Source: a phage
NCBI GenBank assembly: GCA_025611195.1
Contig: GCA_025611195.1_4718.2
Length of the DNA: 64,000 nucleotides
Reading direction: 5' to 3' (one strand)
Shown here: positions 30,601-36,711 of the stretch, piece by piece
How the letters are laid out: every line of letters begins with the position of its first letter
Numbering within the stretch: the stretch's first letter is position 1
The notes under the pieces: generated by a model
Database searches by the model: none
Told to the model about the DNA's origin: nothing
What the model saw: only the letters and a program-made list of their open reading frames with translations
Program-made: the position numbers and the translations under genes

Positions 30601-31416
30601 TTAACGTGTTCTCCTATCACGATGCGTATACGACTGAAGACCGATGTCCATATGCGGTAACGTCAGCGTCTGCCAGATCTGTCGTGCGTAGCGATCGAGT
30701 GTATGGTCGTCAGTAACACAATCGACTGGTTCGATGAGGTGAGTCGTATACTGGCTTTTCTCGGAGAAAGGTTCGATGTTAGCGGTGTCCCCTAATCCGC
30801 TTTTCACCGTGAAGACGAGACGGGTAATTATCATCGCCTTATGCTGCTGTTCATTATAGCGAAGGCTACGATATACAGCATAGCTCCCCCCTTTTAGGCT
30901 TCGGGTATAACGAAGGTCGGAGGTCGTCTCGGAAATCTGATACAACATCCAATCCAACGTATCACGCCAGTACGCATCATCCACATCAGGAACCGTGATG
31001 CCATAACGCGTAGGCAGCAGTTCTAAAAGCAGTTTATAAAGTCCACGACGCAGACCATGCTCTTCTGTTTCAGACAAACCGTTTCCAACGTAACGTGAGA
31101 TACGCGTACGTAAATACGTACGGATGAACATATTTGTCATCAGTGATTTCGCGCTACTACTGTTATCCTCAAAGCGATCAACACTGAAACTCGTTTCAAT
31201 CAGCTGCCCATTAAAGTACAATGCGGCAACATACATCGCATTACTGCTATCTCGTTCAATGTTTAAACGCCCGCAGATATTGGCTGCGTCGTTCATGGTA
31301 AATTCTAACTTATCGTGTTCGATACGGTAAATAATATCCTCTTGGGTTGCTAAGCTCGCAATGCGACGATAACCCGGAGAAGTGCGTTTTACACCCATGA
31401 TTGTCCTCGTTTTCAA
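30601..31416 (-). CDS. hypothetical protein (271 aa)
   Basis: ORF track. Confidence 0.55.
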   Translation of the reverse strand: MKTRTIMGVKRTSPGYRRIASLATQEDIIYRIEHDKLEFTMNDAANICGRLNIERDSSNAMYVAALYFNGQLIETSFSVDRFEDNSSSAKSLMTNMFIRTYLRTRISRYVGNGLSETEEHGLRRGLYKLLLELLPTRYGITVPDVDDAYWRDTLDWMLYQISETTSDLRYTRSLKGGSYAVYRSLRYNEQQHKAMIITRLVFTVKSGLGDTANIEPFSEKSQYTTHLIEPVDCVTDDHTLDRYARQIWQTLTLPHMDIGLQSYTHRDRRTR

Positions 31417-31438
31417 TTTAAGATTGCGTGCGGCATAG

Positions 31439-31465
31439 ACCCTCCCCGCCTTATGCAGGGAGGGT
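31439..31465 (-). terminator. stem-loop ACCCTCCCC/GGGAGGGT
   Basis: Inverted repeat between 31480-32118 and 30601-31416. Confidence 0.4.
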
Positions 31466-31479
31466 AGCCATTAAATGGA

Positions 31480-32118
31480 TTAACCTAATTTACCACCGGC
31501 GATATTGGTGAAATCTTCGCCATCAGGAACTTGCAGTAGAATACGTGCCATGTCCCAGTTGGTTAATGTGATTGCTTTATCATCGATACTCAGTTCTGGT
31601 AGGTCGAGTTCATGATCATCAAACTCGTAGGAAATACTCCACGTTTCATCTGTTTTAGGATCTGTCATCAATACACCGTCTGTCACACGCATGTAGTCCG
31701 GATGCAGTTCATTACTGAACGTACTGAACGGATCGGTGTAACATTCAGCATACCCTTCGATCTGCTGACGCTGTGCCTTCGTACGTAATTCAGGGCATGC
31801 CATAATCAGTTGTCGAGATATGCCGTTTGCAGCACGGAAGTCTTCCACGGTGTTACATGGCATAACCACATCGTCATGGAAGATGTTCTCCGATTGTCTC
31901 AACAGCGTCTTACGGAGTTCAGCATAGTTTATCTGATTGAACGCATCGAACGTTGCTAACGATTCAGCGTAAAAATGCTTTACGTGTTCGCTTGCGCCGC
32001 CGAGGCTATTCATCAACTTGTGACCATACTCCATGAAGCTTTTATCGAGACCGGAGGACATTTCTCCGAACCTCAGTGCACGATAACTGTCTCGTCCACC
32101 TGTAAATATTTGCGCCAT
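31480..32118 (-). CDS. hypothetical protein (212 aa)
   Basis: ATG preceded by AAAGGAGGA RBS. Confidence 0.6.
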   Translation of the reverse strand: MAQIFTGGRDSYRALRFGEMSSGLDKSFMEYGHKLMNSLGGASEHVKHFYAESLATFDAFNQINYAELRKTLLRQSENIFHDDVVMPCNTVEDFRAANGISRQLIMACPELRTKAQRQQIEGYAECYTDPFSTFSNELHPDYMRVTDGVLMTDPKTDETWSISYEFDDHELDLPELSIDDKAITLTNWDMARILLQVPDGEDFTNIAGGKLG

Positions 32119-32133
32119 TACAGGCGTCCTCCT

Positions 32134-34723
32134 TTAGCAATGGTTGTTAGTTGCTTCTATTTCATCAAGATACGGTTCTACGTCATCGCCCTCCACGAAT
32201 TCGTTGAACCAACAGTCAATGGTAGAAATAACCGGTGACTGGTGTTCACATTTCTTAGATACCTTAAAAGGTACGTTATTATCCATCATACCGAGTTCGG
32301 GTCGAAAACGCCCGAAATGTTTCGCAGTCCAAATGTCTGGGACGATATGGTTGTTCATCGTGGTGTTCAGCATGAGTCGCTACCTCATACCCGCAGCTTT
32401 ACCTGCAGCTTCCGGTGTTACCGGAATGTCCAGAATACATCTTATCCATATTCCAAATGGAACGTAGGACTTCCGCGCTGGATCTCGCTTGAGACCACGT
32501 ATTCGTTGAACGTTCTCCTGAACGGAGCTTCGCTGCTGATCGAACATTGTCGTGTACGGTAGGCATCCCCGAAGGGATTGTCATTGAAGCCGCGTACATC
32601 CGCTACCTTGTTTCTACCTTATCGGTTCCTCTTACGAGGCGTAGCGGCCTTAGCCCTTCCCAGCAATTCACGGAATCCAAGCTCTTCCTTTCGGAAGGCA
32701 GGGCCTATGATTAAGCATCCCCGTCGCTGTTATCGACTATATCTTCATCCTCGTTGCGAGGAGTCTCCCGTTTGGGTCTGTGTTTAACAGAGCCTACTCT
32801 ACTCAACATCGCGTCTTTCGATAGTCTGTGAGCACACATCTTAACGAACATTCGTGGATTCCTAAACAGGTGAACGTTCTTGTTGAGATGCTTCGCTGCG
32901 GATTATTCCCGTCCTACCTCTTTTACCGTACCCAGTTCATTACGCTGGCCCTCATCTATGTCACCATGATGAGTTGGTGTGTAGTCCGATTACAGAAACT
33001 TCCCGTCAATTAGAGAGTTTTAACTACGTTCCTGTTACCAGAAACCAGATCCCGACGGTATCAATAAATCAACGTAAGTTATTGATTTAATTGAAAAACT
33101 GAAATCTGCATTATCTAAATCTTCAGTATGGTTCGCTACTCCATACCCGTACCTCATGTACTGCTTACGTCTTTCACGTAAGGATAGACTATATCTTTCA
33201 CCCTCAGCATTATCTGGTCGGGGCTCCCATTTCGGCGGTCAGATGACCGGTGGTTTCCCACGCCGCTTGGCCCTAACGCCCGTAAGCGATAGTCGTTGAG
33301 CACATCTCCGTTCTGGAGACTTCGCTGCGGATTCCCCAATCCTTGCCGCTTTTACCGTACCTGAATGATTAGTTCAGCCCCACGCTCTGTTCCCAGGCAT
33401 GGTTGGTGGACGAGGCTCTAAGTAGGTTCCCGCATTAGAGAGTTCCTCGTAACAACATTTCTGCGTTACTGGGCCTAACGACCCTTTCAAGATCATCACG
33501 CTTAACCCGATGGTGTTATCCTGCGGATCGCGTTTAACCTTGGTGATTTCAAGACATTGGTTACTGCTTCGGTCAAGTGATGGGTTTCGAACAAAGCCGC
33601 ACACAATCCCATCGAACGGTGTATCAGCAATAAGCTCATCATGCAGCTCGCTCATCATCGGATGATAATTACGGACATGTTCCGCAACGAACGCACGTGC
33701 TGCTCTCGGTGAATAACCGCGATGGAATAACTTGGATTGGATATGTTCTTTATTGGTTAAAGTAAATGGTGCGTATGGGAAATGCAGATGATAATAACGA
33801 TGGTTCGCTGTTATCGAACTGATTACGGTACGCGTGGTGAATGGATGTAATGTACCTAATATGTTTTTACGCGTGATACCTTTCTTCTTACCGATGAACT
33901 CATCGAAAATCGCCGCGTGGTATTGCAGCAGCTTCAATTGCACTTTCGCCATCCAGTTTTCTTTCTTTCTGGCGCTCAAAGGTGTTGTTGGATGATAGAT
34001 ACTATTCAGTGTACCAATAGCATCGATCGCACCTTCCATTTTGCTATCTGCATAACGGCCGGTCGGTGTATTTTCGATAACGAACATCATGGCCGCAGGA
34101 AAGCTGATATACTGACTGAAGAACTTATCACGATGGATACGGATGAATTCTCGTAGCGTGTCAACTTTCTCTGTGTTCTTCGGTCCACGTAATGTGGGTC
34201 CTTTATACAAGATCTCCATGATGCGATCGAAGTTCTGTATAAAGCTATTTACACCACGCCGTATCCCGAATACATCAAATTGCTGCTCCAGATAGTTCTT
34301 GAGTTCAATGGGTCGTTTTACATTTGGACGGTAACTGGCATCAATGAGCCACGTCATCGTTTCGAAGCTTTTGATATTCAACTCGCTTGCCAGCACGAGA
34401 TGGACCAACGGGTTAATGAACGCATCGATTCCTTCAGGGACACGCGCCCAGACCGTCGAACGAATCTCCTGTTCTGCTGGGTAGGTTACAACCGTTTTAC
34501 AGTTTGGACACACCGTGCCGAGCAACTCACCGCGATTGTAGAAACCACAACCACATTGTGGCGTGATATCCAACGTATCGCTGGAGTAAACACGGGTGAT
34601 AAAACTGTTTAATTTCTTCTTCTCTTCGACGACTTTTGTATCGTAATCGTTCAACAAAATCGGCGTAAAGGGAAGTTCTGCGAGCTGTCTATCGAAACTC
34701 ACGATATCGAGCATGATGGCCAT
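32134..34723 (-). CDS. multisubunit RNA polymerase beta-prime, N-terminal subunit; proposed 4 exons (34723-33490, 33120-33102, 32726-32714, 32367-32134) split by three group I introns
   Basis: Exon 1 has the Zn-finger (CGCG..CPNC) and RNPSLDRSSNQCLEI (cf NRAPTLHRLGIQAFEP); micro-exons encode LDNADF and DGDA; last exon NTTMNNHIVP (cf QMAVHVP); exon lengths 1234+19+13+234 = 1500 nt keep frame; unspliced ORF ends in intron read-through. Confidence 0.5.
32368..32713 (-). other. group I intron C (ORF-less, about 346 nt)
   Basis: P AATTGCTGGGAAGGG with Q ATCAGCAGCGAAG (compensatory GCTG/CAGC), R CAACGAATACG with S AAGATGTATTC (compensatory P7 change); 3' tail homologous to intron A. Confidence 0.45.
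32727..33101 (-). other. group I intron B (ORF-less, about 375 nt; 3' domain unusually short)
   Basis: P AATTGACGGGAAG, Q AATCCGCAGCGAAG, R GTGCTCACAGACTATCG, S GAAGATATAGTCGATAAC; only about 8 nt between S and the proposed 3' splice G. Confidence 0.4.
33121..33489 (-). other. group I intron A (ORF-less, about 369 nt)
   Basis: Minus-strand elements P AATGCGGGAACC, Q GAATCCGCAGCGAAGTC, R GTGCTCAACGACTATCGC, S AAAGATATAGTCTATCC in correct order; possible P1 pairing exon GAUCU with GGGUC; boundaries approximate. Confidence 0.5.
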
Positions 34724-34765
34724 GGGACATCTCCTACAAATGAAAAAGAACGTTAGGACGTATAA

Positions 34766-34789
34766 GGGAGGGAGGTTGCCCTCCCTCCC
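34766..34789 (-). terminator. stem-loop GGGAGGGAGG/CCTCCCTCCC between chimallin candidate and beta-prime N gene
   Basis: 10-bp perfect inverted repeat; may set expression ratio between the two genes. Confidence 0.45.
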
Positions 34790-34815
34790 GTCAGATTACA
34801 TCGAACGTTCTTCCA

Positions 34816-36711
34816 TTAGAACAGGTTGAATGCTCCACCCATGTTGTTACCACCAACATTCGGACGATCGCTACGTGCATAGATGTTGCCGGAGATGTTA
34901 CCCAGACCACGAGCACGTGCTGCTGTGTTACCACGAACGGCGGTACCTGCCAGATGCTGGATGTTCTCAGGACGGATGGTGAAGCCAGCTTCGGCAGCCG
35001 CTTCAATCAATGCCGCAAGCGCATTCGGTTCGAAATCGTAACGCATTGCCCAACCGGTTTGTTCCCAGCTACCAGACAGAACGCGATCGATGATTTCGTG
35101 ACGAGCAACAACACGCTGAGACATCGACATATCGGTACGGTCGAAGCTGTCTTCCCAAGCTTCTACGGTATCCGGGTTAGTGATGTTCATCATGTACAGA
35201 TCGTCCATATCACGAATATCGTGACGGTTACCGTCCTGGTGGTTGTAGTGACCCAGCGGGATACGGTTACCAGTAGCGTAGACTAACGGTTGGCCGTATT
35301 GATATTTCTTGCTGAAGCAACCCAGGGTGGTATCATCGAATGCACGATAGAGTGCTTTATAGCCTTCGGAGATTTCTTGAACTTTACCGTCAACGTTGCC
35401 CGTAAAGATCTTCTCAGCTGCAGGGATCATACGCAGCAACCAGCTATATTCGCCTTCTTCCGGTACGTCGATAGAAATCAGCAGAGACGGATACAGTACC
35501 TGTTGCAGGAACTTGTAAATCTGCTCGTTGGTTTGAGTAGACAGATCCAGCGGTGCAGTAACTTCCGGATCCAGTACCATCGCCAGAGCACCCGGGTTAT
35601 GCGGACCAATACCACGAGCAGCGTTGCTGATTAAAGACTGCGCCCACGCCATACCGCTGTTCAGCGTAGCGATGGTACCAATCAGACCCAGCACAAACGT
35701 GTTCGGAGTGAACGCATCCAGCTCCAGCGGGTAGGCGCTGGTCATCACGTAACGCGGTTGGTACTGTACAGTCGGCGGTACCGGATAACCGTTAACCAGA
35801 ACAGGACCTTGGTTGAAGGTCGGGTTCTGCGGGCTGTAGGTCAGGTCAATGTAACCAGTGGTTGCGACCAGGCGCTGTTGACTATCGTAATCGCTCATCG
35901 CTTGACGGATACGGTTAGAGATAGTTACAGTGATGTCAGAACGCACTGGGTTACCGACGATATCGCTGTCCTGCATACCGCTGGTGTTGTACTGAACGCT
36001 GCTGATCGGCTGATCGCTTGCCATCATGCCCAGGTTGAACTGCGGCAGACCCAGTTTATCGCCGAGACGGATTTCGATCGCGGTTTGGATTGCGTTATCT
36101 GCAGCAGACAGCAGGGTGGTTGCCAGATGCGCAGATTCAGCAGTGATTTCATTGGTCACCACAGCCAGACCGGCGATACGAACAGTACCGTTAGCCTTAC
36201 CGCCAATAGCCGCATACATTGCCGCCATGACTTCGTTGATGAACGTGCCGTTCAGGTTATCAACCCAGGTACGCGGTACCAGAATGTTACCATGCGGACC
36301 TTGTTCTTCACGACGCGGCAGCGGAGCCAAACCGGCAACCAGCGGAAGCACATAACCGAAGAAGTGGTTATGGTCACCAACTTTTGCACCGCTCATAACA
36401 ACCAGGGTCGGATACGGTACACTGTACTGGTTAGGATCGACGGTCACCATGATGAAGTCGTCTTTGAACCCTTTATCTTCCAGTTCTTTCTCCATCAGAC
36501 GACGGAGATTCAGTACCTGCTCGGAGCCAGTATTACGGCTAATACGACGGCTCAGTGTACGGTTGATCGTACGCATCGTATGAGTTACTTTAGGCTGGCC
36601 AGCAAAATCTGCAGCGGTTTCCAGCGCCTCATCAGCACGTTGTGCGGTGCGGGTTTCAGCTGCACGAATTTCTACATTATCGTTACCGTTATTACGTACG
36701 TCTAAGCCCAT
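34816..36711 (-). CDS. chimallin (phage nucleus shell protein) candidate
   Basis: 631 aa, the size recalled for known chimallins; directly upstream of the beta-prime N gene as recalled for phiKZ gp54-gp55; strong preferred-codon bias; first gene after promoter motif 36781-36800; no sequence comparison possible. Confidence 0.4.
   Translation of the reverse strand: MGLDVRNNGNDNVEIRAAETRTAQRADEALETAADFAGQPKVTHTMRTINRTLSRRISRNTGSEQVLNLRRLMEKELEDKGFKDDFIMVTVDPNQYSVPYPTLVVMSGAKVGDHNHFFGYVLPLVAGLAPLPRREEQGPHGNILVPRTWVDNLNGTFINEVMAAMYAAIGGKANGTVRIAGLAVVTNEITAESAHLATTLLSAADNAIQTAIEIRLGDKLGLPQFNLGMMASDQPISSVQYNTSGMQDSDIVGNPVRSDITVTISNRIRQAMSDYDSQQRLVATTGYIDLTYSPQNPTFNQGPVLVNGYPVPPTVQYQPRYVMTSAYPLELDAFTPNTFVLGLIGTIATLNSGMAWAQSLISNAARGIGPHNPGALAMVLDPEVTAPLDLSTQTNEQIYKFLQQVLYPSLLISIDVPEEGEYSWLLRMIPAAEKIFTGNVDGKVQEISEGYKALYRAFDDTTLGCFSKKYQYGQPLVYATGNRIPLGHYNHQDGNRHDIRDMDDLYMMNITNPDTVEAWEDSFDRTDMSMSQRVVARHEIIDRVLSGSWEQTGWAMRYDFEPNALAALIEAAAEAGFTIRPENIQHLAGTAVRGNTAARARGLGNISGNIYARSDRPNVGGNNMGGAFNLF

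Follow-up and report, generated by a model that had tools for sequence, protein, structure and literature searches.

Background

Group I introns are known in several RNA polymerase (RNAP) genes of phiKZ-like phages, namely in gp56, gp72 and gp179 of phiKZ and in gp65-66 and gp210 of PhiPA3 (PMC10914365, PMC11077065, PMC11620839), those of phiKZ gp56, gp72 and gp179 going back to a prediction of 2002, as cited in PMC10914365. We describe here a 64,000-nucleotide stretch of phage DNA (contig GCA_025611195.1_4718.2, hereafter the window), the minus strand of which carries, at 34723-32134, a gene predicted to encode the N-terminal beta' subunit (beta'-N) of the non-virion RNA polymerase (nvRNAP), homologous to phiKZ gp55. 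This one gene is very probably split by three independent group I introns without open reading frames (ORFs), named A, B and C, all inserted inside a run of 26 coding bases in the catalytic, Mg-binding motif (Y|NADF|DGDA|M, with bars for the introns). A preliminary description, made from the letters of the window, had proposed three tandem ORF-less group I introns inside NADFDGD and had stated that phiKZ-like phages carry such introns in RNAP genes; the latter point agrees with the 2002 prediction and with an 80-bit match of RF00028, the Rfam group I intron model, in the same gene of the phiKZ-like phage T2P, where the intron lies between N and A of NADFDGD.

The phiKZ gp55/gp56 intron, which contains an HNH gene, interrupts the same gene and the same motif as in the window, and the T2P intron ends in a 3' tail (GGGTATGGATTAACGACCCATACTGAACATAACG) homologous to those of introns A and C. 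However, the phiKZ-type intron is a single one at a different site and holds an annotated endonuclease-gene fragment, whereas the window has three ORF-less introns at three other sites, 13 nt apart. For Escherichia phage vB_EcoM_Goslar, the records NC_048170 (167622-170910) and MK327938 annotate a 423-aa truncated beta' coding sequence (CDS), one Intron_gpI, an HNH gene and a 79-aa 'hypothetical protein'. The annotated Intron_gpI corresponds to intron B of the window, at the same site, and intron C is present in both phages, but Goslar lacks intron A and its intron B has a P9 stem around a 336-aa endonuclease gene. Intron C and a 13-nt exon 3 are unannotated in the Goslar records, and the public annotation can be corrected accordingly, the 79-aa 'hypothetical protein' being the last exon.

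Very short exons between group I introns have been found in other systems. In PMC10136302, the orf142 gene of Staphylococcus phage Twort is described as containing three group I introns and an internal exon of 23 nt that is subject to skipping, and Coxiella 23S rRNA as having a 34-nt exon between group I introns, while in placozoan mitochondrial cox1 a single-base micro-exon lies between two group IB introns (PMC5436844). Twort orf142, also a phage gene interrupted three times by group I introns, shares with the window the presence of a very short exon between introns, but the window has two consecutive 13-nt internal exons inside a catalytic motif and three different guide sequences. It is clear from the placozoan and Coxiella cases that exons this short do occur between two group I introns, with correct splicing; these cases are, however, organellar or ribosomal with one short exon each, whereas the window belongs to a polymorphic, recently mobile set in a virus. 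In PhiPA3 gp210, a group I intron of the virion RNAP gene encodes an I-HmuI-like HNH endonuclease that gives a competitive advantage in co-infection (PMC11620839). As in the locus described here, an RNAP gene of a jumbo phage is interrupted at conserved aspartates, and the endonuclease is of the type borne by Goslar and by the relative L013 described below, but the PhiPA3 intron is single and lies in another subunit, that of the virion polymerase, and the introns of the window are free of endonucleases. No description was found, in the literature searched, of a polymerase catalytic motif interrupted by three introns in 26 coding bases, of two consecutive 13-nt exons or of an allelic series of five types; the arrangement is an unusually dense case of a known phenomenon. 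It would lower the limit for viral exons between group I introns to 13 nt, compared with 23 nt (Twort) and 34 nt (Coxiella), the shortest phage or bacterial cases that PMC10136302 cites.

Results

The proposal of three introns is borne out by matches to the covariance model, by the splice-site helices P1 and P10 and the terminal G (omega-G) of each intron, by covariation and, above all, by natural alleles that lack individual introns. The window is closely related to Goslar, a cultured phage, with 97.3% identity to window 31400-35000 in three pieces. A protein-guided scan of viral contigs and a scan of metagenomes with a DNA pattern for exon 4 yielded ten further Goslar-like sequences with 94-98% identity, nine of which span the whole stretch; the remaining one, L016, is cut off upstream and was not typed. 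The 11 typed alleles (nine relatives, the window and Goslar) show presence/absence polymorphism at the same sites and fall into five types. The three-intron layout A+B+C of the window recurs in five further sequences (L010, L011, L012, L017 and L018). Goslar carries B, with an endonuclease, and C, which are 97% and 99% identical to those of the window, respectively. L013 has A only, with a 323-aa HNH gene in the P1 loop. L014 and L015, and probably the untyped L016, have only a fourth intron, named X, inserted after AAY GCT, and L009 has X and a diverged copy of C.

Since A is missing from Goslar, B and C from L013, and A, B and C from L014 and L015, all six splice sites of the window are matched by a natural allele without the intron concerned. 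L013 reads ...AG|AT AAT GCT GAT TTC GAC GGG GAC GCG ATG AAC AAC CAT, and L014 reads ...TG|GAC TTT GAC GGT GAC GCG ATG AAC AAC. An exact degenerate pattern for an allele without both B and C gave no match in the viral contigs. Removal of the introns restores the reading frame, and the intron-less alleles read through each junction. Once the introns are removed, YNADFDGDA is found in 11 of 11 alleles; eight of its nine codons vary, every change being synonymous.

Intron X (L009 5252-5601, and in L014 and L015) is inserted 8 nt downstream of site A. It is 79% like intron C in the 5' half and like intron A at the 3' end, and both X and C follow GCU and use the guide GGC. X looks like a chimera, or else like a paralogue displaced within the motif, and its likeness to C in the 5' half, the GCU and the guide suggests that one of the two arose from the other by an 18-nt move within the motif. 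The Goslar-like allelic series thus comprises four insertion sites within 26 nt and two configurations with endonucleases, and five different insertion sites are found in the 27 bases encoding YNADFDGDA across the phage family, the phiKZ-like intron included.

Exon 1 (33481..34723, minus strand as for all features below unless stated otherwise) has 1243 nt, i.e. 414 codons and the first base of a Tyr codon, and ends with ...TTGAAAGGGT, as indicated by the ORF, by collinearity with Goslar and by alignment with the phiKZ gp55 structure (PDB 7OGP_A). It belongs to the 449-aa ORF already pointed out in the preliminary description, which was found at 33374-34723; the beta' homology stops at codon 414 of this ORF, and its last 35 codons are read-through into intron A. 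Intron A (33115..33480, 366 nt, no ORF) is absent from Goslar, L009, L014 and L015, in which GGN TAY AAY is uninterrupted. Goslar is collinear with exon 1 up to window position 33483 and continues directly with TATAATGCC; window positions 33482-33115 are missing from it, and it reads AAA GGT TAT AAT GCC GAC TT (KGYNADF). This natural empty site places intron A at 33480-33115, ending in ...GATTTAG, and exon 2 is therefore ATAATGCAGATTT (33102..33114), which encodes (Y)NADF and has 13 nt instead of the 19 nt proposed earlier. The same exon is contiguous with its neighbouring exons in L013 (ATAATGCTGATTTCGACGG). The 19-nt form, with a 3' splice site after CTGAAG, would add the residues LD, which are missing from Goslar and all homologues, and it has no P10. 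The product consequently reads KGYNADFDGDA and not KGYLDNADF, and the spliced CDS has 1494 nt and 497 aa rather than 1500 nt and 499 aa.

In P1 of intron A the exon sequence GGGU pairs with GCCC, with a U.G pair at the splice site, and this helix was recovered by RNAalifold; P10 joins nucleotides 2-6 of exon 2 (UAAUG) to intron nucleotides 1-5 (CGUUA). The P8 loop region (33204-33215) contains 12 nt, AGATAATGCTGA, that repeat the 3' splice site of intron A together with exon 2; they are identical to the L013 version of the exon and are not kept in L017. The copy is probably due to chance and could act as a cryptic 3' splice site. Another part of intron A (33246-33333) has 83% identity to the first 150 nt of Escherichia phage Av-05, which carry no annotation. 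It is also similar to intron regions of phages of Bacillus, Enterococcus and Vibrio and of the DNA polymerase genes of E. coli phages.

Intron B (32727..33101, 375 nt, no ORF, no P9) is absent from L013, L014 and L015. Its guide sequence at 33058-33046 consists of CCGUCG (P10, 33058-33053) followed by GGAUCUG (P1, 33052-33046). P1 pairs the end of exon 2, CAGAUUU, with GGAUCUG, the U at -1 being opposite G, and P10 joins CCGUCG to CGACGG, nucleotides 1-6 of exon 3; once ligated, exons 2 and 3 are complementary to this one continuous 13-nt guide. In Goslar P1 is formed by the exon sequence CCGACUU and the guide GAGUCGG, so that two compensatory double changes and one wobble-to-Watson-Crick switch separate the P1 helices of two genomes that are 97% identical. 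P1, P10 and the core are 100% paired in an alignment of seven intron B sequences, in which four pairs show a compensatory change; no shuffled alignment equalled this covariation, and slid controls gave 0 in five of six cases and 2 in the sixth.

The preliminary description had noticed that intron B has almost no sequence between P7 and the 3' splice site, and indeed 8 nt separate the 3' strand of P7 from the omega-G at 32727. The Goslar copy is longer by about 1066 nt near its 3' end, where a perfect 14-bp P9 stem (UUACGUGCACCGAC / GUCGGUGCACGUAA) encloses a 336-aa HNH_3/NUMOD1 gene. In the window the dinucleotide CA replaces this whole stem together with its ORF, which explains the scant sequence at this place, and the P9-less form is kept in six sequences. 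Exon 3 (32714..32726), CGACGGGGATGCT, encodes (F)DGDA; its 13 nt, as given in the preliminary description, are contiguous with the flanking coding sequence in L013, L014 and L015. A part of intron B (32871-32957) is 77% identical to an intron region of PhiPA3 gene 065, which encodes another nvRNAP subunit.

Intron C (32359..32713, 355 nt, no ORF) is absent from L013, L014 and L015, which read GAC GCG ATG AAC. Its P1 pairs GCU|UA with UAGGC, with U.G at the splice site, and comprises the last three exon bases and two base pairs within the intron; P10 pairs AUGA of exon 4 with UCAU (32710-32707). The P4 (UGCUGG/UCAGCA) and P7 (GAAUAC, 32504-32499, with GUAUUC, 32438-32433) pairings, both singled out in the preliminary description, are present and covary in relatives. 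An alignment of the intron C family was made from five sequences, namely intron C of the window, L010 and Goslar, the diverged C of L009 and intron X of L009. Unguided, RNAalifold recovered P1-P6, a hairpin between P7 and P3', P8, P9, P9.1 and P9.2, whereas P7 was added by hand; the hairpin is taken to be of the P7.1/P7.2 type of subgroup IA. The resulting structure has 103 pairs, 98% of which are standard, and compensatory changes affect 33 of the 103, including pairs of P1, P7 and P9.2. None of 500 shuffles reached this covariation, and slid controls gave at most 2. The core (P3, P4, P6, P7 and P8) is 95-100% paired, with three compensatory pairs in P7, which is GAUCAU/AUGAUC in intron X. 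On these sequence comparisons, intron C is the weakest of the three introns by Rfam and the best supported by comparison. A DNA search of phage records for relatives of intron C returned Goslar only.

Introns A, C and X share a homologous 3' tail with the phiKZ-like intron, in each case a hairpin (GGGUAUGG...CCAUAC) and then 11-12 nt, the last of which is G; within the window this motif is found at A and C only. Sequence conservation begins exactly at ATGAAC in L009, L013, L014, L015 and L016. This start of conservation, P10, the spacing in homologues (DGDA, seven residues and D) and the homologous 3' tails place the 3' splice site of intron C after 32359. Exon 4 (32134..32358, 225 nt including the stop codon) accordingly starts with ATGAACAAC (MNNHIVPD...), in agreement with the MNNHIVP exon expected earlier, and it aligns without gaps to the homologues and to 7OGP_A. 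A 79-aa ORF at 32134-32373 consists of exon 4 and five intron codons. Two other 3' splice sites, after TAG (32380) and after ATG (32371), were rejected, as they would add seven and four residues, respectively, compared to the homologues, have no P10 and disagree with the start of conservation. A 5' splice site after GAT (P1 GGGAU/CCCUG) was likewise discarded, since this codon is GAC in Goslar and L010 and the Ala codon would be lost.

The Rfam model RF00028 has a gathering score of 50 bits, and a scan of the whole window at the curated Rfam thresholds gave no match. In a permissive search of 32000-34000 (2 kb, to which the E-values refer), minus-strand matches were obtained at 32727-33093 for intron B (46.9 bits, E 2.7e-10), at 33165-33501 for intron A (29.6 bits, E 3.9e-5) and at 32471-32675 for intron C (16.7 bits, E 0.29, core only). 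The three matches expected in the 1.1 kb that follow the 449-aa ORF were thus found on the short stretch, but all remained below the gathering score, and only those of A and B appeared at the scale of the window. The alignments to the model place P3-P8 in introns A and B. As anticipated in the preliminary description, a U.G wobble is present at the 5' splice site of each intron and a terminal G at each 3' end (33115 in A, 32727 in B and 32359 in C). The P10 helices have 5, 6 and 4 bp in A, B and C, respectively, and the guide sequences differ (GCCC in A, GGAUCUG in B, GGC in C). Among the ORFs of at least 40 aa overlapping the three introns, none contains a Pfam domain scoring above threshold, and no endonuclease ORF is borne by the window copies of A, B and C.

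The CDS obtained by joining 34723-33481, 33114-33102, 32726-32714 and 32358-32134 would be linked at GGGT|ATAATG, GATTT|CGACGG and GATGCT|ATGAAC. Its 497-aa product reads ...LKGYNADFDGDAMNNHIVPD, in which NADFDGD is intact once the three introns are removed, and the stretch across the predicted exon joins is GYNADFDGDAMNNHIVPDIWTAK. Pfam family PF00623 (RNA_pol_Rpb1_2) matches residues 371-428, across all three junctions. The alignment with 7OGP_A (E 1e-74, residues 21-476) is gapless through the motif, the product sequence LKGYNADFDGDAMNNHIVPDIWTAK being opposite LKAPNADFDGDQLNLTLMPDVYLTK, as the earlier proposal of an in-frame NADFDGD had required. The uninterrupted homologues of PhiPA3, Eowyn, Xoo-sp14 and DT01 have the same spacing as the spliced product, and C57, C59, C72, C75 and NADFDGD are invariant in the homologue alignment. 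The chain 7OGP_A is named PHIKZ055 / PHIKZ056.1; since this name covers two annotated pieces, the phiKZ protein is likewise joined from two pieces.

The upstream neighbour of the gene is the nuclear-shell (chimallin) gene (34816..36711), identified from the annotations of Goslar, PhiPA3 and Eowyn. The chimallin gene adjoining the beta' gene corresponds to the gp54/gp55 block of phiKZ, as in PhiPA3 and Eowyn, and the gene of the window is therefore assigned to nvRNAP beta'-N. Homology to gp55 along the whole length, with the Cys cluster, the catalytic loop and the synteny with chimallin, points to the same family. No second NADFDGD is encoded within the window. Besides the nvRNAP, phiKZ-like phages have a virion RNA polymerase that includes a beta' subunit of its own, so that a further NADFDGD motif at another place in the genome would be no sign that the present locus is a pseudogene.

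Discussion

Group I introns are removed in a two-step reaction initiated by guanosine. By analogy, each intron of the window would fold into its own ribozyme core and be excised independently of the others. The 5' splice site would be chosen by pairing of the upstream exon end with the internal guide sequence, with U.G at the cleavage site, where an external guanosine would cut; P10 would then align the downstream exon, and the exons would be joined after the terminal G. Nucleotides 2-6 of exon 2 are assigned to P10 of intron A and nucleotides 7-13 to P1 of intron B, and in exon 3 nucleotides 1-6 belong to P10 of intron B and nucleotides 11-13 to P1 of intron C. Exons of 13 nt may be tolerable because the splice-site helices tile them without overlap. 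Moreover, the difference between the three guide sequences should favour exon inclusion over skipping, as differing splice-site recognition elements do in engineered tandem introns (PMC10136302). By this analogy, clean inclusion of both micro-exons is plausible.

Several observations weigh against the splicing of all three introns. The covariance models by themselves leave the matter unsettled, most of all for intron C: each intron fails to reach the gathering score of RF00028, and the score of C is close to noise. The minimum-free-energy z-scores are weak or uninformative (-1.5, -1.8 and -2.8), and the covariation for A and B is drawn from sequences that are 94-98% identical, with few independent changes. 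Intron B lacks P9, and the P1 of intron C is short, with three exon bases. The U.G wobble at the 5' splice site of group I introns is near-universal, but the diverged intron C of L009 (5602-5630) follows GAT GCC and thus has a C at -1, forming C:G with the guide. Splicing itself is inferred from sequence, and a long-read transcriptome study of phiKZ found no splicing of the predicted RNAP introns (PMC10914365). A separate observation on the L009 intron is that its P1/P10 guide, CAUGGC, is perfectly complementary to the ligated GCC|AUG.

Some of these points would also suit other explanations. Introns A and B might be spliced and C might stay in the message, which would yield two polypeptides (...NADFDGDA, and a second one starting from the ATG at 32373 or 32358) that assemble non-covalently like other beta/beta' pieces. 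The polymerases of these phages are already split into several genes. Moreover, a TAA directly follows exon 3, GAGG is found 8 nt upstream of the ATG at 32373, exon 4 starts with ATG in every allele, and the RF00028 score of 16.7 bits and the short P1 of intron C agree with such a split. However, an untranslated spacer would have no need of the full group I fold that the intron C family keeps with 33 compensatory pairs, nor are the stop after exon 3 and the MLNTT leader conserved in the L009 copy. Besides, P10 pairs with the first bases of exon 4 in the window and in L009, the GAGG falls inside the P9.2 hairpin, and one continuous polypeptide is encoded by L013, L014, L015 and all distant homologues, which makes a split protein very improbable. 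That the locus is a decaying pseudogene with intron-like relics, its function being supplied from elsewhere, is hardly conceivable. The catalytic motif is non-contiguous in the DNA, and in the public annotation of Goslar the CDS is truncated and a 'hypothetical protein' is listed separately, but the micro-exon region varies only synonymously across the 11 alleles, the helices are maintained by compensatory changes, no other NADFDGD is encoded within the window, the layout recurs in five further sequences, and two of the introns are found in Goslar, a cultured and viable phage.

It is also improbable, though the introns be real, that they are not autonomous and that one or more of them depend for splicing on a protein of the phage or the host, or on how a neighbouring intron folds, the candidates being B without its P9 and C with its 3-nt exon pairing. 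The 8 nt from P7 to the 3' splice site of intron B, where the Goslar copy has a 14-bp P9, the weak P1 of intron C and exons so short that the ribozymes must fold within 13 nt of each other would fit such a dependence, as would the exon skipping reported in PMC10136302 for the 23-nt Twort exon and the 34-nt Coxiella exon. On the other hand, the sequence indicates no cofactor, the P9-less intron B is conserved in six sequences, and each intron has a guide of its own, a difference that promotes clean inclusion of exons in engineered tandem introns (PMC10136302). If the introns did depend on each other or on a protein, the order or efficiency of splicing could regulate the amount of active polymerase.

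We therefore retain three independently spliced, ORF-less introns as the highly probable arrangement of this gene, and the relatives suggest how it may have arisen. HNH genes are found in intron A of L013 (6995-7966, minus strand, P1 loop, 323 aa) and in intron B of Goslar (L001, 3349-4359, minus strand, P9 loop, 336 aa). The two proteins are homologous (27% identity, E 2e-26), both of the HNH_3 type and I-HmuI-like with NUMOD-like parts, and their genes thus occupy different introns and different structural positions. The window copies of A and B presumably lost such genes or never had any. The exon flanks were compared among the window, Goslar (L008), L009, L010, L012-L015 and L018, the 150 nt upstream of 33481 being set against 400-850 nt upstream. 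The 150-nt flank groups by the type of the adjacent intron, with 98-100% identity among A-bearing alleles, 98-99% among X-bearing alleles and 95-97% between the groups. No grouping by intron type was seen at 400-850 nt; L014 and L015, for instance, are 99.3% identical near the intron and 94.7% far from it. Although the counts are small, this clustering of the near flanks looks like the result of co-conversion during homing.

The introns may therefore spread among co-circulating Goslar-like phages via endonuclease-driven homing and recombination. Introns that lie 13 nt from an endonuclease-bearing intron would ride in its conversion tracts, which offers a simple spreading route for ORF-less introns. 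It is a tentative, rather doubtful idea that the three-intron, endonuclease-free allele goes beyond passive selfish DNA and serves as armour, its three adjacent filled sites destroying the recognition sites of the HNH endonucleases that co-infecting phages carry in introns A and B. If so, a polymerase stretch whose protein sequence cannot change would be protected for no greater price than three splicing reactions; the motif would have been packed with introns through an arms race of endonucleases in phage nuclei that several phages share, and the helices that tile the 13-nt exons would mark the limit of packing. The natural allelic series concerns an E. coli phage amenable to laboratory culture and is usable for studies of homing, co-conversion, exon skipping and the idea of introns as weapons, which has been shown for PhiPA3 and phiKZ.

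Other features of the window

Within exon 1 (33622-33662), sR24 and sR28, two models of archaeal C/D box snoRNAs, gave weak matches; in view of their E-values (1.9 and 8.4, respectively) they were taken as chance matches. Overlapping small ORFs at 41-44 kb of the window turned out, on comparison with Goslar, to be ordinary short hypothetical genes.

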